From contig JAZLFJ010000053.1 in NCBI GenBank assembly GCA_045615665.1, positions 89,531-153,530 on the forward strand: a DNA stretch of 64,000 bases. The letters are read 5' to 3'. Position 1 is the first letter of the stretch. Every line of letters starts with the position of its first letter. This stretch comes from Bacilli bacterium. Lineage in GTDB: Bacteria; Bacillota_I; Bacilli_A; RFN20; CAG-826. The notes beneath the pieces were generated by a model, which saw only the letters and a list, made by a program, of their open reading frames with translations, had not been told where the DNA came from and searched no databases. Both the position numbers and the translations under genes were made by a program. Shown piece by piece: positions 6,232 to 61,215 of the stretch.

Positions 6232-7428
6232 ATGAAAAAATTCAAAAGAATATTCGTAATCGTCACTGACTCAGTCGGCATCGGTGAAATGCCAGATGCA
6301 GAGAAGTTTGGTGATAAAGGAACAAATACGTTTGTTCATACCGCAGAAAGATGTGGTGGACTCAATGTTCCAAATATGAATTCTTTAGGTCTTGGTGACC
6401 TCGCCCCAATACTTGGTACGAGCAAAGTCAAACATCCTCAATCCTATTGCATGAGACTTCGCGAAGCGAGCAATGGAAAAGATACGATGACTGGTCACTG
6501 GGAAATGATGGGGATATATACCACAAAACCATTTATTACTTTTACCGATACAGGCTTCCCACAAGCCCTCATCGATGAGCTCGAAGAAAAGACTGGTCAC
6601 AAAGTGATCGGTAACAAAGCTGCTTCTGGAACCGAGATTCTTGTTGAATTAGGCGAAGAGCAAAAACGTGATAATTCACTCATCGTTTATACCTCCGCCG
6701 ATAGCGTACTTCAGATTGCAGCCCACGAAGAAACAACTGGGGTTCAAGAACTCTATAGATGCTGCGAAATCGCTCGTGAAATTTGCTTACGTCCTGAATA
6801 TTATGTTGGTAGAGTTATTGCCCGTCCATTTATCGGTGACGATAAAACTAACTTCAAACGTACTCCAAATCGTCACGATTTAGCCGTTTCTCCAAGTGGC
6901 ATCACAACCATGGATGTTCTTAAAGAAAATGGTTATATGACTAGCTGCATTGGCAAAATTGGTGATATCTTCAACCAAGTTGGTATTACCAAAACCCAAA
7001 AAACTGTTTCAAATATCGACGGAATGAATAAAACTATCGAAGAATGCAAAAATCATGACTTTGAAGGTTTATGTTATATCAACTTAGTTGAATTCGATTC
7101 TGAATACGGTCATAGAAGAAATCCGCTAGGATATGGTAAATGCCTTGAAGAATTCGATGTTAAATTAGGCGAACTCATCAAAGTTTGTAAAGATGATGAC
7201 TTAATTATGGTAACCGCCGATCACGGTAATGATCCAACTCATACCGGAACCGATCATACCAGAGAAAAAGTCCCTCTACTTTGCTTTAGCAAATCATTTA
7301 AGAATGGCCACTATTTAGAAGAGAGAGATACTTTTGCTGATATCGGTGCAACCATCTTAGAAAACTTCGGTTTAAAGAAAGCTCCAAATCAAATTGGTAA
7401 GCCAATCGAAGAATTATTAAAAGACTAA
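6232..7428 (+). CDS. deoB: Phosphopentomutase
   Basis: 398 aa with VTADHGNDP and EFDSEYGHRR motifs. AAGGAG RBS. Confidence 0.95.
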   Translation: MKKFKRIFVIVTDSVGIGEMPDAEKFGDKGTNTFVHTAERCGGLNVPNMNSLGLGDLAPILGTSKVKHPQSYCMRLREASNGKDTMTGHWEMMGIYTTKPFITFTDTGFPQALIDELEEKTGHKVIGNKAASGTEILVELGEEQKRDNSLIVYTSADSVLQIAAHEETTGVQELYRCCEIAREICLRPEYYVGRVIARPFIGDDKTNFKRTPNRHDLAVSPSGITTMDVLKENGYMTSCIGKIGDIFNQVGITKTQKTVSNIDGMNKTIEECKNHDFEGLCYINLVEFDSEYGHRRNPLGYGKCLEEFDVKLGELIKVCKDDDLIMVTADHGNDPTHTGTDHTREKVPLLCFSKSFKNGHYLEERDTFADIGATILENFGLKKAPNQIGKPIEELLKD

Positions 7429-8015
7429 CTAATCTTAGAAATATGATGAAGGGAACGTTTAATTACGTTCTCTTTTTCTAATTTTGAAATTAGTCTAGAT
7501 AAAGTTTCTCTTTTTAAACCTAATTCGCTTGCTAAAGTAGTGACACTTTTAAAGTCAACTTCGCCTTTATTTATAAATAAATAATATTCAAATCTTTCCA
7601 AAGCCGAATCGATAGAAAGAAGTTTAATTCTGCTATTGAGAGATTTGCCGAAATCAGATTGAATCTTTAAATATTCTTTTAGGAATTCTTTATTTGATGA
7701 TAGCAACGTTATCAAATCATCTTTTTTAATCGTCACCACGATTGATTTATCCACTGAAACAACATCACCTTTATAGTTAGGTTCACTAGAGAAAAGAAGA
7801 TTGTTACCAAATATTTGATTCTTGCCTAATTCGTTAAAGACAATTTCTTTGCCTGAGAACGAATAAGAAACGATTTTGATTTTTCCTTCACTTACAATGG
7901 TGATTTCTTCACATGTTTCACCTTCACGATGTAAAACATCGTTTTTATTGTACGAGCGGACACTCAAGAGTTTTCTTTCCTCTTTTTCTAATAATGATAA
8001 AATGTTCTTTTCCAT
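7425..8015 (-). CDS. Crp/Fnr-family transcriptional regulator
   Basis: cNMP-binding beta-roll plus C-terminal HTH (TLASELGLKRETLSRLISKL). ATG at 8015 is preferred over the track's TTG at 8033. Confidence 0.8.
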   Translation of the reverse strand: MEKNILSLLEKEERKLLSVRSYNKNDVLHREGETCEEITIVSEGKIKIVSYSFSGKEIVFNELGKNQIFGNNLLFSSEPNYKGDVVSVDKSIVVTIKKDDLITLLSSNKEFLKEYLKIQSDFGKSLNSRIKLLSIDSALERFEYYLFINKGEVDFKSVTTLASELGLKRETLSRLISKLEKENVIKRSLHHISKIS

Positions 8016-8022
8016 ATAATTC

Positions 8023-8038
8023 CGTGATTTCAATCACA
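8023..8038. promoter_or_regulatory. CRP/FNR-type palindrome
   Basis: cGTGATTTCAATCACA, with perfect 6-bp arms GTGATT/AATCAC, fits TGTGA-N6-TCACA. Sits in the divergent region between the Crp/Fnr gene and the ABC operon. Confidence 0.5.
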
Positions 8039-20624: not shown

Positions 20625-20633
20625 TGCTATAAT
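20625..20633 (+). promoter_or_regulatory. Extended -10 promoter of ispG positioned for a leaderless mRNA
   Basis: TGcTATAAT ends at 20633, with 6 nt to ATG 20640. No SD. Confidence 0.55.
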
Positions 20634-20639
20634 CAAAAT

Positions 20640-21701
20640 ATGCAATTACTTCCTAGAGAAAAAACTCGCAAAATCAAAATAGGCAACATTTCTATCGGTG
20701 GAGAAAACAAGGTTTTAATCCAATCGATGTGCAATATTAAAACCTCAAATACGAAAGAGGTTATCAGGCAAATAAACGAATGCGCTCTTCTTGGTGCTGA
20801 TTTAATGCGCGTGTCTGTTTTAGACATGGAAGACGCTAAAGCAATCAAAGATATCGTCAAAGCTATTTCAATTCCTTTAATTGCAGATATTCATTTTGAC
20901 TATCGCCTAGCGATAGAATCGATCAATTCTGGAGTGAATGCTATTAGAATCAATCCAGGCAATATCGGCTCAATTGAAAATGTGAAAAAAGTCGTTTCTC
21001 TTTGCAAAGAAAAGCATATTCCTATTCGCGTCGGAGTCAATTCAGGATCCATCGATAAAGAAGTTAATAATGATACAGAAAAAGTTCCTGCTAAGGATTT
21101 GATTGAATCGGTCAAACGTACAATTAAGATTTTAGAAGATTTAAATTTCTACGATATCGTTATTTCCCTTAAGGGAAGTCATGTTTTAGATACGATTGAA
21201 GCATATAAACTAGCGAGCCAAGAATTTTCTTATCCCCTTCACGTTGGAATCACTGAAGCTGGACCAAAAGATGTTGGTCTAGTTCGATCAGTTGCAGGCT
21301 TATCGCCAATATTAACTGCTGGAATAGGCGATACAATAAGAATTTCTTTATCAGATGAACCTCAAGAGGAGGTTAGAGCGTGCCGTAGATTATTGAAAGA
21401 TTTAGAAATTCGTAACGATTATCCTAATCTCATCTCCTGCCCAACATGCGGTCGCACTCAAGTTAATCTTGTCCCGTTAGCAAAGAAAATTGCTTCTTTC
21501 CTAGAAGCAAATCATATCAATAAAACCGTCGCTGTCATGGGTTGTATTGTCAATGGACCAGGCGAAGCTAAGCGCGCTGATATTGGCTGTGCAGGTGGAA
21601 AAGGTCAGTGGGTGATCTTCAAAAAAGAAGAAATCATCAAAACTGTTAAAGATAATGAAATCTACGAAGAATTCACCAAAGAAATACTCAAATTAAAATA
21701 A
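20640..21701 (+). CDS. ispG: HMBPP synthase (flavodoxin-type IspG)
   Basis: 353 aa with the 4Fe-4S cysteines ISCPTCGRT and GCIVNGPGE. Confidence 0.95.
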   Translation: MQLLPREKTRKIKIGNISIGGENKVLIQSMCNIKTSNTKEVIRQINECALLGADLMRVSVLDMEDAKAIKDIVKAISIPLIADIHFDYRLAIESINSGVNAIRINPGNIGSIENVKKVVSLCKEKHIPIRVGVNSGSIDKEVNNDTEKVPAKDLIESVKRTIKILEDLNFYDIVISLKGSHVLDTIEAYKLASQEFSYPLHVGITEAGPKDVGLVRSVAGLSPILTAGIGDTIRISLSDEPQEEVRACRRLLKDLEIRNDYPNLISCPTCGRTQVNLVPLAKKIASFLEANHINKTVAVMGCIVNGPGEAKRADIGCAGGKGQWVIFKKEEIIKTVKDNEIYEEFTKEILKLK

Positions 21702-33342: not shown

Positions 33343-33382
33343 AATCTTGGGTGTATATTATAACATCTTTTTTTAAAAATGC

Positions 33383-34555
33383 TTATAAATCACATCTGTC
33401 CAAAAATCTGGATCTTTTTATTTTTCTTTCTCGGAAGTTAGAGAAATAGCGAATTAAATGTCCGAACGCCTCACTCATTAAGAAATATATTCCAAAATGG
33501 AATATGATGAAATTTGTCGAAGTCATATTGTTAACGATCATCATTCCTAAAGAGAGACATAAACTAACAAAAATATAAAAAACTTTCTTTAAAGAACCAG
33601 TTAACGCTACCTTCCCTGCTAGTGAATTTGCTTTCTTCAAAGAAGCGGTCAAAGTCGATGGAGAATCAAAGGCGGTCTTTTCAATGTCATCAACTTCTTT
33701 AGTCTCTTGCTTTTCTTTCTTTGAAAGTAGCTTGGCATCTAGCACTTTAACTAATAACAAAATCAGAAATACCAATAGATTGCGGTAATCATTCACGCAT
33801 AATAGTGTAGCGAAAACGATAATCATCACCAAATTTGAGATTAAAGTCTTAAAACTGATGAAGTAATTGCATTTGTAATCTACGTAGGAGCGATACGCCT
33901 CGATATTTTGATTACTTTTTTGGGAGAAGAAAATGTCAATATATTGTCTATCAAAGAAATACAATTCTTTGACAATGTACCAATTTTCTACTAATTCTGC
34001 TAAAGCAAACAAAAGCAGGAACCCCATCGTCAAGATGATGCTGGAGTCATCTTTTATCAAGTAAAATCCTGTCAATAAGGATGCGAATACAATGCTTAAG
34101 ATTCCATAATAGATTAAATCCATCCAGATTGGTAAGAGTTTGATTTTATTTGCTTTACATCCTTTAGCGTCCTTTGTATTAACGCATTCGAGAACTTGAC
34201 CGCTCCACCGTTTCATAAATTCATCATGTGAGACCCTTACTTTACCGATGTTAGGATCGATGTAGGTCACGCTGAATTTACTTACTCGTTTTAAATAAAC
34301 GAGATGATTTGGTTTGATCATCACAAGTGTCCCTAAAGGAATCTCCTTAAAATCGTCGATTGGCATCTCATAGGCCGAGAGCACGAAGCCATAATTCTTT
34401 GCGATGTACATCAAATCGTAAAATGTGTAATCCTTCTTCTTTGAAGGCTTTTTGAGATAGAGATATTTTTTATTATGTGTTTTGTTCGCTAAAAGCATCT
34501 TGAGAGAAGCAAAGCCACAATCTCTATCATTTCCTTGGTAACAAACGTATGTCAT
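33383..34555 (-). CDS. C39 (double-glycine) peptidase domain fused to a polytopic membrane domain, with no ABC ATPase
   Basis: QGNDRDCGFASL (Gln7, Cys13), KPNHLVYL (His84) and YIDPNIG (Asp100), then 5-6 hydrophobic helices. GGAGG RBS. Confidence 0.7.
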   Translation of the reverse strand: MTYVCYQGNDRDCGFASLKMLLANKTHNKKYLYLKKPSKKKDYTFYDLMYIAKNYGFVLSAYEMPIDDFKEIPLGTLVMIKPNHLVYLKRVSKFSVTYIDPNIGKVRVSHDEFMKRWSGQVLECVNTKDAKGCKANKIKLLPIWMDLIYYGILSIVFASLLTGFYLIKDDSSIILTMGFLLLFALAELVENWYIVKELYFFDRQYIDIFFSQKSNQNIEAYRSYVDYKCNYFISFKTLISNLVMIIVFATLLCVNDYRNLLVFLILLLVKVLDAKLLSKKEKQETKEVDDIEKTAFDSPSTLTASLKKANSLAGKVALTGSLKKVFYIFVSLCLSLGMMIVNNMTSTNFIIFHFGIYFLMSEAFGHLIRYFSNFRERKIKRSRFLDRCDL

Positions 34556-34568
34556 AGTTTTTCCTCCA

Positions 34569-34608
34569 TAAACTTATTACTGAGAAAAAACGAAAAAAAT
34601 GCGAAAAA
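34569..34608 (-). promoter_or_regulatory. Bipartite motif copy 1 (upstream of the C39-membrane gene)
   Basis: Minus strand reads TTTTTCGCA-N15-CTCAGTAATAAGTTTA. Lies between the rpsU terminator and a GGAGG RBS. Confidence 0.5.
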
Positions 34609-34635
34609 CTTTTTTAATACATAGTATTACTTTTT

Positions 34636-34667
34636 TATAAGAAAAGGCCACCAGCATTTGGTGACCT
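34636..34667 (-). terminator. rpsU terminator
   Basis: AGGUCACCA..UGGUGGCCU stem plus a U-rich tail. Confidence 0.7.
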
Positions 34668-34673
34668 TATTTC

Positions 34674-54795: not shown

Positions 54796-55746
54796 CTAAT
54801 TTGGAAAATTAATTAGAAATAATTCAAGTCCATAGAAGCGGTCAATCTGGCCGCTTTTAATTTGATAATCAAGGTAATATAAATCGTCTAAAGCATGAGC
54901 GATTTGTCTTCTAGACAAACGTCTACTATTTCTAAGTGAGATCTTAACTCTCCATTCGTTTGCTTTTAATTCGGATGCGATTTCTTTTTCATCTAAGCCT
55001 TTACTTGATAAAAACAAGACTTCGCTAATGAATCTAAATTGTGATCCAAGCATTGGAATTAATCCGTCCGTAGAATTTGAGCCCTGTAAACAAATATCGC
55101 GGAATATCGCTAATGCATTTGCATTGTCGCCCTTAAAGAGCGCGTTTGTAATTTGGAAAGCATCATCTTCAAGTGGCTTAGCAACCATTAAAGTTATATC
55201 CGCAATACTAAGATGATCCTTATATAAGCACAGCTTCTCGGCTTCGTTTACAAATCTAGATAAATCACCATTCACTCTTAAAGCGAGTTCTTGAACGGCG
55301 TTTTCATCAATAACGACATTTCTTTCTTTAAAATATTTGCGAATATAGATTGGCCATTCTTCTTTTTTTAGATTTAAGAATTCGAGGATTTCACCATTAT
55401 TTTTTATATAGTCTACAATTGGGTTTTTATGATCGATATTTTCGTTTCGTAAAATAAAAATAATATTGATGGAATCGGAACTATTTTCTAAAACTGAAAG
55501 TATTTTTTCAACTGTATCTTTATTGCTTTTTGGCTCCAAAAATGAGGCTTTATCAATAACTACGGCTTTAGAGTCGTATCCTAATGGAAGCATGCTAGCT
55601 TCATCGCAAATTTCGTCGACGATGTCATTCGAAAATTCAAATTTGACGACATTAAAATCATCAACTTCTTTTAATCTTTCTTTTAGGATTTTTCCGAGAC
55701 GTTTTTTAATCATCGGATATTGTTCGCCATAAAGAATGTAATTCAT
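54796..55746 (-). CDS. holA: DNA polymerase III delta subunit
   Basis: 316 aa. Follows comEC as in Bacillus. Confidence 0.8.
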   Translation of the reverse strand: MNYILYGEQYPMIKKRLGKILKERLKEVDDFNVVKFEFSNDIVDEICDEASMLPLGYDSKAVVIDKASFLEPKSNKDTVEKILSVLENSSDSINIIFILRNENIDHKNPIVDYIKNNGEILEFLNLKKEEWPIYIRKYFKERNVVIDENAVQELALRVNGDLSRFVNEAEKLCLYKDHLSIADITLMVAKPLEDDAFQITNALFKGDNANALAIFRDICLQGSNSTDGLIPMLGSQFRFISEVLFLSSKGLDEKEIASELKANEWRVKISLRNSRRLSRRQIAHALDDLYYLDYQIKSGQIDRFYGLELFLINFPN

Positions 55747-55765
55747 TATTTTGAATTATACACTA

Positions 55766-57775
55766 TTATGCAAACATCGACACATAAGAAATTGTTCCCT
55801 CTAAATCTGTGCGACGTATTTTAACATTGTATTTTGTTAATGTTTCAATAACTTCTTTATTTGGGTGACCATATTTGTTTTTCGCGCCACAAGAGATGAC
55901 TGCTTCGCTAGGCGAAGTAGCTTTAATAAATTCTTCACATGAAGAAGTTTTTGAACCATGATGCCCTACTTTTAAAATGTCACAATCAACATCGATTCCA
56001 CTGTTAAGAATATACTTTTCACTTTCAATTGAAGCGTCGCCTGTAAAAAGCCACTTTTTCTTCATGAAATCAACTAAGAAGACGAGGCTAGAATCGTTTT
56101 CATCGCCATCATAATAATTGATATTTTCAAGTTTTATATCTCCTACTTTAATAGGAAAATCACTTCGTTCTTTTAGGTAGCTTTTAACTTTAAAGTTCTC
56201 TATAAGAGAACTAGCTGCTCCAGCATGGTCAAAATCATCATGACTTGTCACTAATAAATCGATGTGAGAAACTCCTATTTTTCTAAAGTAAGGAATTAGA
56301 GTTTCTTCTGCCATATCGAATTTGGTGTTTCCGCCAGTATCAATTAGGACATATTTGTTCCGATTACAAAGAAGGATGGAATCGCCCTGGCCAACATTGA
56401 TGAAATGAACTGAATTATTTGGGAGTCTGATTGGTAAGATGGATATAGTTAGAAAGCTGACCAAGGCGATCGCTACGTTTCTTAAATGTCTGATCCTTTG
56501 AGATTCTAAGAGATAGAGGGCCAAAATTAAAGAAGCGTAGTAAACGAGAAAGAACCACTCATTTACCTTTATAGGTAAAGAGATATCGAGTTTTAATAGA
56601 GATTTTGATATCCCTACTAGGAAGTTCGAGTAGGAATTTATAAGGCTCGTAAGAGGTAATCTAACAATTGATGGAAGGATGAGAATTATATATATCGTAA
56701 TAAAAGGAATAAGCATCAACTGTAACGGAAATGAAAATAAATGAAATAGGTTCTTATTTGCGAACATTATGGGGAGAAGGAACAAATAAGCAAAGATGGA
56801 CAAGTAATATTTTCTTTTCCTGGATGGGAAGTAATTGATTCCAGTTCGATAAAACACTCCTAGTAGGGATAATAAAAATCCTATATAAAATGTCTCTTGA
56901 TATACCAGGTGGTAGTCGATGATGAGAAAGAACAGAGAGAGACCACTTAACAAAGTTAAGTACGAGAATCTCTTTTTTAAGAAATGTTCATTTATATATC
57001 GGAGCGAAGTTAGTAGGAACACCCTTAGAATCGAGATTCTCGGGAAAGAAAATAAAGCTATCGGAGAAAATAGTAAGATCGGGACGAGTTCTGCAACTTT
57101 TTTAGATGAGAAGAGACCAAAGACATACGTTGTCCCTTTGAATAATGAATGTAGATAAATCCCGCTGATCGATACTAGATAAATTAGATTGAGTTCAGCA
57201 AAAGCTGCTATAGCAGGATTTGAGTAATCTTTTTCATTGAACAATAAGGCATCTATAAGCCCTTGAGAATTCTCATTAAATTTAGCCAGGAAAATCTTTT
57301 TGCGACTATGAAGTCTAATCGGATTAGTAAAATCAGTTTGATAATCCTTTATTTCTAGGCTTCTTGTAACACCTTTATCTTTAAGATAATTCGCGAAATT
57401 AAACTGGGATTCATAAGTGGTTACTTTGAATTCGCTAGGTTTGCTTTTTATGGTGAGAAAATCACCGATTTCCTTATCTGAGTTCTCGTCGTAAACGTAA
57501 TATTTTTCAAAGTGGCTTTGGAAGATGAAGTAATTTTCTTTAACTTCCACCACCATTCCTTGATAAATATTGTCTTGATTATCGTATTTGATATTTAAGT
57601 TTCCGATGAAGGCGCCGCCGATAAAGACTATTAGAAATACTATCGCGCGCTTCTTAGAAAATCTTACGAATATAAATACAATATAAACAAGACTAATGAT
57701 GATGCTTAAAGCAAGATTATTTCTAAAGAAATATAATCCGAGTACGAGTGATATCGTTGTACATAATAGACTCAT
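55766..57775 (-). CDS. comEC: DNA internalization channel ComEC (competence plus MBL domains)
   Basis: Polytopic competence domain and a C-terminal MBL (HFINVGQGDS..SHDDFDHAG). Confidence 0.85.
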   Translation of the reverse strand: MSLLCTTISLVLGLYFFRNNLALSIIISLVYIVFIFVRFSKKRAIVFLIVFIGGAFIGNLNIKYDNQDNIYQGMVVEVKENYFIFQSHFEKYYVYDENSDKEIGDFLTIKSKPSEFKVTTYESQFNFANYLKDKGVTRSLEIKDYQTDFTNPIRLHSRKKIFLAKFNENSQGLIDALLFNEKDYSNPAIAAFAELNLIYLVSISGIYLHSLFKGTTYVFGLFSSKKVAELVPILLFSPIALFSFPRISILRVFLLTSLRYINEHFLKKRFSYLTLLSGLSLFFLIIDYHLVYQETFYIGFLLSLLGVFYRTGINYFPSRKRKYYLSIFAYLFLLPIMFANKNLFHLFSFPLQLMLIPFITIYIILILPSIVRLPLTSLINSYSNFLVGISKSLLKLDISLPIKVNEWFFLVYYASLILALYLLESQRIRHLRNVAIALVSFLTISILPIRLPNNSVHFINVGQGDSILLCNRNKYVLIDTGGNTKFDMAEETLIPYFRKIGVSHIDLLVTSHDDFDHAGAASSLIENFKVKSYLKERSDFPIKVGDIKLENINYYDGDENDSSLVFLVDFMKKKWLFTGDASIESEKYILNSGIDVDCDILKVGHHGSKTSSCEEFIKATSPSEAVISCGAKNKYGHPNKEVIETLTKYNVKIRRTDLEGTISYVSMFA

Positions 57776-58314
57776 CTCAAGCGAATATAATTCTTTATCT
57801 TTTCGAATGTAGCGTTGCCTATTCCGTTGACATTCTTAACATCTTCAATTCGACCAAACTTATTTTTCGAAGTTCGATAGCTAACAATCGCTTTAGCGAC
57901 GGTTGAGCCAATACCAGAGATGGTTTGAAGAGTTTCTTCGTCATCACCGTTTATATTGACTTTAGTAATCGGATCCATGCTACAAACATCAGAATTGTTG
58001 TATTTTGGAGCGATATAAAAGCTCATCGAATCTTCTAATAAATAAGTCGTGTCATACGCAGCCTCATCAGCGTTTGTTGTAACGCCACTAGCTAAAGAGA
58101 TCAAATCTCCTAATGTTGTATTAGGTTCTAAAATGTAAGTTCCTGAGCGAGTCACCTCTCCAGAAATTGACACGCTGATGGAATTTCCACTCGCTGAAAC
58201 TAATGTCGAAGCGTTGTTCGCAACAATTGGGCTAGTCGTGTTCGGGTCAATGAATTGGAAGATGACAATCATAATGACCGCTGTAACTAAGACGGCTGCA
58301 AAAACTTTGACCAT
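57772..58314 (-). CDS. comEA: DNA receptor ComEA
   Basis: N-terminal TM helix, SLBB-like region and a C-terminal double helix-hairpin-helix (ISGIGSTVAKAIV..VNGIGNATFEKI). Confidence 0.8.
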   Translation of the reverse strand: MVKVFAAVLVTAVIMIVIFQFIDPNTTSPIVANNASTLVSASGNSISVSISGEVTRSGTYILEPNTTLGDLISLASGVTTNADEAAYDTTYLLEDSMSFYIAPKYNNSDVCSMDPITKVNINGDDEETLQTISGIGSTVAKAIVSYRTSKNKFGRIEDVKNVNGIGNATFEKIKNYIRLR

Positions 58315-58334: not shown

Positions 58335-58374
58335 TAAACTTATTACTGAGGTTTTTATGAAAATTTGCGAAAAA
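58335..58374 (-). promoter_or_regulatory. Bipartite motif copy 2 (upstream of comEA-comEC)
   Basis: Identical TTTTTCGCA-N15-CTCAGTAATAAGTTTA between the valS terminator and an AGGAG RBS. Confidence 0.5.
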
Positions 58375-58384
58375 TTTTTGTTTA

Positions 58385-58410
58385 AAGAAAAAAGATGGCA
58401 AAGCCATCTT
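58385..58410 (-). terminator. valS terminator
   Basis: AAGATGGC-ttt-GCCATCTT stem plus TTTTTT. Confidence 0.8.
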
Positions 58411-61003: not shown

Positions 61004-61215
61004 AAAAAACGTCCCACATAAGGACGCTAAGAGCGCGGTACCACCTTAATTCTATAACCTAGTTATAGCTCTCGATTATCTTTATCGCAGATATACGGAA
61101 TATTCCTATTCAGCCTAACAAGCGACAACATTTAGGGTTTAGGTAGCTATTCCACCGCTGCGCTACTCTCTAAACTAAACTTAACTAAATATCCTCTTGC
61201 TCAAACGGCACTTAA
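61004..61215 (-). promoter_or_regulatory. T-box riboswitch leader of valS
   Basis: AGAGAG stem-I box and the conserved T-box sequence GGTGGTACCGCG (61045-61034). Terminator CGTCC..GGACG plus a T-run (61027-61004). Adjacent GUU GUC valine codons at 61129-61124 are specifier candidates. Confidence 0.8.

Follow-up and report, generated by a model that had tools for sequence, protein, structure and literature searches.

The question raised by this locus is why two separate genes of an uncultured member of the Bacilli are preceded by one and the same bipartite sequence, and what kind of signal this sequence might be. The stretch of DNA that was analysed, here called the window, is 64,000 nucleotides long and carries both copies on its minus strand, one 5' of a gene for a C39 peptidase with a membrane domain, the other 5' of comEA-comEC (Table 1). 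The initial annotation had taken them for an alternative-sigma promoter or a regulator operator, possibly belonging to the competence regulon. We consider it probable, with some reserve, that the motif forms the core of promoters of a dedicated class, which would serve a small regulon in an Erysipelotrichaceae-like uncultured rumen/gut bacterium, a promoter function suggested by its position and its conservation. As a kind of finding, a regulon-specific promoter is already familiar.

Two identical copies in the window

Both copies are present as first described: all 25 specified positions are identical, the gap between the boxes is 15 nt in each, and the distances to the start codons (ATG 34555 for the C39 gene, ATG 58314 for comEA), the ribosome binding site (RBS) within each of these intervals and the terminator-like hairpins of rpsU and valS just 5' of the copies were all borne out. 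The rough estimate that such a match lies far from chance holds as well, given that the window contains two sites at up to three mismatches and none was expected from 100 dinucleotide-preserving shuffles of the window under the same tolerance. A mismatch-tolerant scan of the window returned 25/25 twice and 19/25 as the next best score, with nothing between, and either box taken alone, TTTTTCGCA or CTCAGTAATAAGTTTA, is confined to the two motif sites. Weaker copies in the window were considered and discarded, as matches of at least 16/25 are no more frequent there than in shuffles. A chance origin is ruled out by the shuffles, by the mismatch-tolerant scan and by the scan of a genome collection described below; judged by these scans, the motif is a real, conserved, non-chance cis-element.

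Table 1. Coordinates of the motif copies, their flanks and the neighbouring genes. Plain positions refer to the window; those with an L prefix refer to retrieved loci outside it.
Feature	Position	Strand	Remark
Motif copy 1, TTTTTCGCA-N15-CTCAGTAATAAGTTTA	34608-34569	minus	5' of C39 gene
Copy 1 left box, TTTTTCGCA	34608-34600	minus	
Copy 1 spacer			15 nt, T-rich, between the two boxes
Copy 1 right box, CTCAGTAATAAGTTTA	34584-34569	minus	13 nt 5' of C39 ATG
RBS of C39 gene, GGAGG	34567-34563	minus	
A6 tract adjoining copy 1 left box	34610-34615	minus	invariant AAAA columns in nine-site alignment
Palindrome TAATAC-TAT-GTATTA (TAATACtatGTATTA)	34615-34629	minus	just 5' of copy 1
rpsU intrinsic terminator hairpin	34644-34668	minus	shields C39 unit from upstream transcription
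C39 peptidase with PCAT-type membrane domain	33383-34555	minus	390 aa, no nucleotide-binding domain
Extended -10, TGTTATAAT	33357-33365	minus	40-nt gap 5' of ybeY; downstream edge of C39 unit
ybeY	33342-32893	minus	overlaps cdd
cdd	32893-32492	minus	
Motif copy 2, same boxes	58374-58335	minus	20 nt 5' of comEA ATG
Copy 2 spacer, AATTTTCATAAAAAC	58351-58365	minus	
RBS of comEA, AGGAG	58329-58325	minus	
A5 tract adjoining copy 2 left box	58375-58379	minus	also at every other copy
valS intrinsic terminator hairpin	58392-58410	minus	shields comEA unit
comEA	57772-58314	minus	SLBB and HHH_3 domains
comEC	55766-57775	minus	DUF4131 and metallo-beta-lactamase domain
TATAAT	55755-55760	minus	8 nt 5' of holA ATG; downstream edge of comEA-comEC unit
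T-box leader	61017-61214	minus	5' of valS
Crp/Fnr-family regulator gene	7425-8033	minus	divergent from an unannotated gene for 297 aa
Third copy, TTTTTCGCA-N15-CTCAGTATTAAGTTTA	L037:499-538		RUG11348; after a hairpin, 20 nt 5' of RhuM-family gene
Palindrome GGTAC-N3-GTACC (AGGTACgaaGTACCT)	L037:477-491		5' of RhuM copy, same distance from left box
Fourth copy, TTTTTCGCA-N15-CTCAGTAATAAGTTAT	L074:2773-2812		rumen metagenome; after a terminator, 17 nt 5' of ORF124
Sister-species sites, TT(T/G)TTCAAAAAATTT	L007, L067, L082		C39, comEA and ORF124 respectively; right box kept
Fused ybeY-cdd, distant relatives	L013:11214-12062; L015:11210-12055		281-282 aa
IS605 OrfB/TnpB (Cas12f-like) gene	L084:6343-7500		beside ORF124 locus
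RhuM island, two strains	L037:1-3423; L075:1-4200		

Further copies beyond the window

The initial annotation had proposed a genome-wide search for the motif. Scans of genome and metagenome collections yielded a third copy in the genome RUG11348 and a fourth on a rumen contig. The pattern TTTTTCRMA-N15-CTCAGTAWTWA, scanned over 185,579 species genomes, occurs at 46 loci, 43 of them singletons in unrelated taxa (none of the nine inspected lies at a gene start) and three in RUG11348 alone. From the singleton rate, we put the likelihood of a chance occurrence of three matches in one genome, anywhere in the collection, at about 1e-6. Two of the three loci are the window's own sites on contigs 96.6-96.8% identical to the window, so that RUG11348, a rumen metagenome-assembled genome listed as 'uncultured Erysipelotrichaceae bacterium' (assembly CACXKR01), is by this measure the same species; the ComEA of the window, for its part, finds matches solely on metagenome contigs. 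The third locus precedes a gene of the RhuM family. A metagenome scan found the C39 and RhuM copies again in rumen samples and added the new copy 5' of an open reading frame for 124 aa (ORF124); the contig of the latter was placed in the species through its ORF product (97% to the P0205 cluster) and through its occurrence in the same samples as the C39 and RhuM copies, not through nucleotide identity.

All four copies follow a hairpin, point in one orientation and stand 13-20 nt 5' of an ATG with an RBS between, and within the roughly 150 kb available from the species and its sister species the 9-nt cores are restricted to these sites. Several copies per genome, a single orientation and a fixed distance to gene starts are what is generally looked for in the promoter of a regulon. 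Exact-pattern scans of genomes and metagenomes gave no further copies, degenerate ones being beyond the reach of such scans. A phage or other mobile origin was considered and rejected: a scan of viral contigs gave four singleton matches only, and the PHROGs hold no match for the RhuM-like or the ORF124 protein. A literature search for the box sequences returned only irrelevant primers and eukaryotic sequences.

Target genes and the limits of their units

Both units in the window are closed off at either end. Terminators stand upstream, and the next genes downstream, ybeY and holA, have canonical promoters of their own, so that the motif would serve the C39 gene and comEA-comEC only; comEC overlaps the comEA stop and is therefore presumed to be co-transcribed with it. 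At holA (55744-55760, minus strand) and ispG/GcpE (20628-20642, plus strand), a perfect TATAAT or TGCTATAAT stands 6-8 nt before the ATG, which implies leaderless or near-leaderless mRNAs.

The C39 domain matches Pfam PF03412 at 6.7e-19, and its Gln7, Cys13, His84 and Asp100, the catalytic residues that it shares with the PCAT1/ComA transporters, are invariant across 34 homologs; the protein thus has, as far as its sequence tells, an intact and predicted active peptidase domain. In a predicted model (pLDDT 86), the peptidase and membrane domains superpose on PCAT1 (Foldseek, 6v9z, E=7e-13, TM 0.62), and the peptidase domain resembles that of ComA (5xe8, 3k8u). Unlike these transporters, however, the protein ends after its last helix: it gives no ABC_tran Pfam match and lacks the C-terminal ATP-binding cassette. 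The family is clade-restricted as well (64 clusters, all members of about 390 aa), its gene keeps the same place, between rpsU and ybeY, in every relative, and no gene for a partner ATPase, ComB or a double-glycine peptide lies nearby. The analogy to the processing of the competence pheromone by ComAB, drawn in the initial annotation, accordingly keeps the intact peptidase and the PCAT-type membrane domain but loses the ATPase domain.

The ComEC of the window matches only DUF4131 and the metallo-beta-lactamase domain in Pfam; the 'Competence' domain PF03772 is not found at E<0.001 and gives a weak match in one relative only (L018). The RhuM-family protein (419 aa) matches PADLOC PDC-S05 at E=3e-104, and its gene is followed by AbiEi/AbiEii. 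It lies in a strain-variable island: in one strain it is flanked by an XRE HTH gene on the upstream side and by AbiEi/AbiEii on the downstream side, in another an MNT/HepT toxin-antitoxin pair and a gene for an XRE-HTH membrane protein stand upstream, and the two strains are homologous only from the hairpin 5' of the motif onwards. ORF124, an orphan confined to the clade (8 clusters) and 57% identical between the species and its sister species, has no match in Pfam, PDB sequences, PADLOC or PHROG, and its AlphaFold model (pLDDT 73) has no Foldseek match; that it might be the missing regulator is neither supported nor excluded. The four targets share no obvious common function, and none of comG, comF, dprA, ssb, coiA and recA was found within the window or the fetched loci.

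Anatomy of the cassette

An alignment of nine sites shows that the conserved unit is longer than first described. Its consensus reads A4-5, 0-1 nt, TTNTTC..A, a spacer containing TTT(C), CTCAGTAWTWA.TT and the RBS; the TTT(C) of the spacer is present at 9/9 sites, and the likeness between copies partly continues as far as the ATG. Two subtypes can be told apart. The first comprises the C39 and RhuM copies, which agree at 37/40 positions, share the spacer form TTTTTCGTTTTTT and carry a 15-nt upstream palindrome with a TAC-N3-GTA core, the arms of which are conserved and the loops of which vary across strains and species; these palindromes may represent a second operator or a small hairpin. The second comprises the comEA and ORF124 copies, alike across about 80 nt, with terminator-TTTTTCTTTAAWMAAAAA upstream and AAAAA(C/T) at the spacer end. 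Likeness of this kind, reaching into spacers and flanks, means that part of the identity between copies may be owed to duplication or gene conversion rather than to selection driven by a common factor.

The comEA spacer also matches the CodY box AATTTTCWGAAAATT at 12/15 positions, and so does its strain variant AATTTTTAGAAAAAC; among the four motif sites, such a match occurs at comEA only.

Conservation within the species and a switch in its sister species

Among 13 strain sequences (eight of the comEA copy, three of the C39 copy and two of the RhuM copy), all 25 box positions are constant, and variation is confined to the hairpin loops, the spacer, the flanks upstream of the cassette and one base of a 5'UTR. 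The boxes of the comEA copy are invariant across all eight of its sequences while its spacer varies, and copy 1 is identical in the strains L045 and L073. This pattern points to purifying selection on the boxes and supports the promoter reading. Boxes more conserved than their spacer, together with conservation at orthologous positions, are again what a regulon promoter would be expected to display.

ComEA and C39 homologs led to relatives with nucleotide identities of about 87%, 77%, 75% and 71%. All of them keep the gene order around both window sites, and the C39 gene shares its signal with comEA-comEC in the species of the window and in two relatives. The sister species (86-87% nucleotide identity) reads TTCAAAAAATTT at 3/3 sites, where the species of the window reads TTTTTCGCA at 4/4; its ORF124 site lies about 500 kb from the C39 and comEA sites on the same 930-kb scaffold (ENA ERZ28653736). 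CGCA is kept in two further species (at comEA in L019, and at ORF124 in L084, there with 25/25 positions), from which it follows that the form of the sister species is the derived one, and a neutral coincidence is ruled out by the recurrence of both substitutions at each of three scattered sites. The switch implies co-evolution with the protein that reads them, homogenisation of short tracts among the copies, or both. On the one hand, the comEA spacer of the sister species resembles its C39 spacer, which favours some conversion; on the other hand, its ORF124 spacer keeps a locus-specific 3' half, which argues against wholesale conversion.

Further away, the upstream regions of C39 and comEA in a third species (about 77% nucleotide identity) share CyTTnnAACAAA...AGTATyTATT at equal spacing, and a distant ORF124 ortholog (37% amino acid identity) is preceded by TTTTCGAAC-N18-GTATTAAGT. 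The durable core in distant relatives would thus be roughly TTCGMA-N19/20-GTAWTAAGT. Two rearrangements were seen beside these loci: more distant relatives have ybeY and cdd, which are separate and overlapping genes in the window, fused into one gene for YbeY plus cytidine deaminase, and in one related species an IS605 OrfB/TnpB gene is inserted next to ORF124.

Position and type of the signal

Sigma-A promoters are readily recognised in this DNA. In the window, TATAAT or TGnTATAAT occurs in no fewer than 15 further upstream regions, among them those of parE and ispG (TGCTATAAT), hrcA (TTGACA-N17-TATAAT with CIRCE) and rpsT (TGTTTATAAT); the four motif sites carry none. In line with what had been noted for the two window copies, neither of which is overlapped by an acceptable sigma-A -35/-10 pair, a test for TTGACA-N16-18-TATAAT, in which the -10 had to have A as its second and T as its sixth base, gave nothing overlapping the motif at any of the four sites. 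The sole match at comEA, TTGCCA-16-AAAAAT (9/12, at chance level), lies inside the terminator stem. At ORF124, the terminator T-run and the A tract are only 13 nt apart, which leaves no room for another promoter. By this arrangement, the motif occupies the place that must hold the sole promoter of the C39 gene and that of comEA-comEC. Of the reading as alternative-sigma promoter or operator, what stands is a conserved cis-element unlike the sigma-A promoters of this genome; a protein that reads it is presumed.

Other types of signal were tried and rejected. The four copies have no consistent fold (z = -2.15, 0.36, -0.85 and 1.16) and no Rfam family, Rfam scans by gathering score and by E-value having returned nothing relevant to the motif. 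CRP-S (TGCGA-N6-TCGCA) and LexA/Cheo boxes were dismissed by eye, since the sequence has no partner to form a palindrome and TCGCA is lost in the sister species. Two elements elsewhere in the window were recorded on the way: a T-box leader 5' of valS (79.7 bits, E=7e-18), which stays below the Rfam gathering score of 93, so that no RNA family at all came up in the window under default settings, and a gene for a Crp/Fnr-family regulator (cNMP-binding and HTH_Crp_2 domains) with no evident link to the motif.

Competence and other known systems

The best of the alternatives is that the motif is a competence (late com) promoter read by a sigma factor of the ComX/SigH type, with the C39 protein as a ComA-like processor of pheromone; we regard this as possible but rather doubtful. 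It draws on comEA-comEC being among the targets and insulated from its neighbours, on the ComA-like peptidase domain of the C39 protein, and on precedent, since SigH drives comGA, comEA and coiA in Listeria (PMC4754846) and Staphylococcus (PMC3486894). However, the ATPase domain of ComA is missing from the C39 protein, neither a ComB gene nor one for a double-glycine peptide lies nearby, the other three targets are no known competence genes, and the consensus tests for cin-box, SigH and ComK failed at all four sites, in agreement with the earlier remark that the sequence matches neither known box of the ComX/SigH type. Of the suggested membership of the C39 gene in a competence regulon, what is supported is that the gene shares its signal with comEA-comEC; the two further copies precede the RhuM/PDC-S05 gene and ORF124. 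With three of four targets outside the competence genes, a competence theme is possible but not demonstrated.

The resemblances are instructive all the same. Like the ComX (sigma-X) cin-box regulon of streptococci and lactococci, the motif is a short, conserved, non-canonical element before comEA-comEC and a few diverse accessory genes, with a T-rich upstream region and with units insulated from housekeeping neighbours; unlike it, the motif is bipartite with a fixed 15-nt gap, its other targets are not late com genes, and TACGAATA is absent from the 120 nt upstream at all four sites, with up to one mismatch allowed. ComK of Bacillus subtilis binds two AAAA-N5-TTTT boxes 8 or 18 nt apart, and not one exact half box occurs at any of the four sites.

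SigH competence promoters have the consensus RMAGGRWWW-N11-12-RRMGAAW (PMC4754846); in Listeria, their boxes are more conserved than the spacer within species, and promoters and regulon diverge between species (PMC4754846). The candidate promoter described here behaves in the same way in both respects, and like the SigH promoters of Listeria, Staphylococcus and Bacillus it would be a bipartite alternative-sigma promoter driving comEA. In contrast to them, it has neither the AGGA of the -35 nor the GAAT of the -10 and a spacing of 19-20 nt instead of 11-12 nt; with up to two mismatches, the SigH consensus finds no match at three of the four sites, and the match at RhuM overlaps the RBS and is out of register.

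Among known signals, the closest resemblance, to be taken as a lead only, may be to the promoters of group 5 sigma factors (TcdR, BotR, TetR, UviA), with -35 TTTACA and -10 GTTATA, GTTAAT or GTATAT (PMC4031146, PMC3610760). The -10-like element of the motif likewise starts with G-T followed by A/T (GTAATA, GTATTA), its -35-like element is T-rich, and group 5 regulons are small, with secreted-peptide or bacteriocin functions for which the C39/PCAT-like gene would be the counterpart here. Yet TTTACA is absent, and the full group 5 pattern is not matched at three of the four sites with up to two mismatches.

Other explanations

Less likely again, though still deserving attention, is a sigma-A promoter with a poor core, in which an activator would bind the left box and the spacer, the right box serving as a weak -10 combined with a discriminator or operator. 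Several copies (C39, RhuM) have a direct repeat TTTTTC(G) with an 11-nt period in left box and spacer, and this tandem arrangement, TTTTTCG-N4-TTTTTCR at a distance of 11 bp, is reminiscent of PhoB/OmpR-type sites; the spacer TTT(C), conserved at all aligned sites, could be read as part of an activator site, and the left box is always loosely similar to TTGACA (TTCGCA, TTCAAA, TTAACA). Against this, the second TTTTTC repeat is poorly conserved at comEA and ORF124, and no response-regulator gene is linked to any motif site. The right box lacks the -11 A or the -7 T needed by sigma-A in every register, and its 16 nt are more conserved than the left box, which would be unusual for a weak -10.

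We give very little weight to the idea that the copies are paralogous DNA cassettes, spread or homogenised by recombination or gene conversion and devoid of a shared regulatory meaning. The likeness of the copies beyond their boxes, the concerted change at all sites of the sister species with its C39-like spacer at comEA, and a RhuM copy that travels with a strain-variable island would all fit. But every copy has one orientation, stands at a fixed distance from RBS and ATG and has no rival as candidate promoter at its place, boxes are invariant within the species where spacers and loops vary, and the sites are retained orthologously in at least four species. Moreover, the 3' halves of the spacers are locus-specific (e.g. 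AAAAAT at ORF124 in three species), so that any conversion could have covered no more than about 15 nt at a time.

Slightest of all are the prospects of a role at the RNA level, as a translational operator or structure in a 5'UTR reached by transcription from upstream: the motif does lie immediately 5' of the RBS, and the T-run of the C39 copy is able to base-pair with the Shine-Dalgarno region GGAGGAAAAA (-12.4 kcal/mol, z = -2.15), but this pairing is absent in the other three copies, terminators lie immediately 5' of the motif and leave no promoter in between, and Rfam holds no match.

A probable dedicated promoter and its proposed regulon

The reading that we prefer, a dedicated promoter class, assembles these observations as follows. 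The cassette would begin with a hairpin, followed by an A5 tract, TTTTTCGCA, an A/T-rich spacer of 15 nt with TTT(C), CTCAGTAWTAAGTT, and RBS and ATG within 13-20 nt. RNA polymerase would be recruited to it by a dedicated factor and not by sigma-A alone, most likely an alternative factor of the sigma-70 family, less likely sigma-A together with an activator at the left box. The left box would supply a -35-like TTCGMA, and the right box a -10-like GTAWTA that has G-T in place of the T-A required by sigma-A, although the two hexamers are 19-20 nt apart, beyond the usual 16-18 nt, which makes the register uncertain. The first transcribed base would be at or close to the last A of GTTTA, giving 5'UTRs of about 14-21 nt, and in the window the terminators and the sigma-A promoters of ybeY and holA would confine the signal to its two units. 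The regulon so far would comprise four units: comEA-comEC, the PCAT-like C39 protease/translocator without nucleotide-binding domain, the RhuM/PDC-S05 candidate defence gene and the orphan 124-aa protein. The shift of the recognition sequence at every site of the sister species could then reflect co-evolution with the factor, homogenisation of the copies, or both.

A wider interpretation can be offered only tentatively, and we think it more likely to fail than to hold: a clade-specific factor, probably a divergent alternative sigma, might run a small 'foreign-DNA handling' regulon in reduced-genome rumen/gut Bacillota, combining the ComEA/ComEC channel, the ATPase-less PCAT-like protein, a candidate phage-defence gene and a fast-evolving orphan, and its specificity might have been switched between sister species with compensating changes in each of the regulon's promoters (TTTTTCGCA to TTCAAAAAATTT).

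For the biology of these organisms, the motif would provide a compact and testable handle on the control of DNA-uptake genes in small-genome Erysipelotrichaceae-like bacteria of the rumen and gut. The ATPase-less PCAT-like gene between rpsU and ybeY directs attention to an uncharacterised membrane protease that shares its signal with ComEA/ComEC, and the switch of the left box between sister species may serve as a small natural experiment in the co-evolution of promoters and the factor that reads them.
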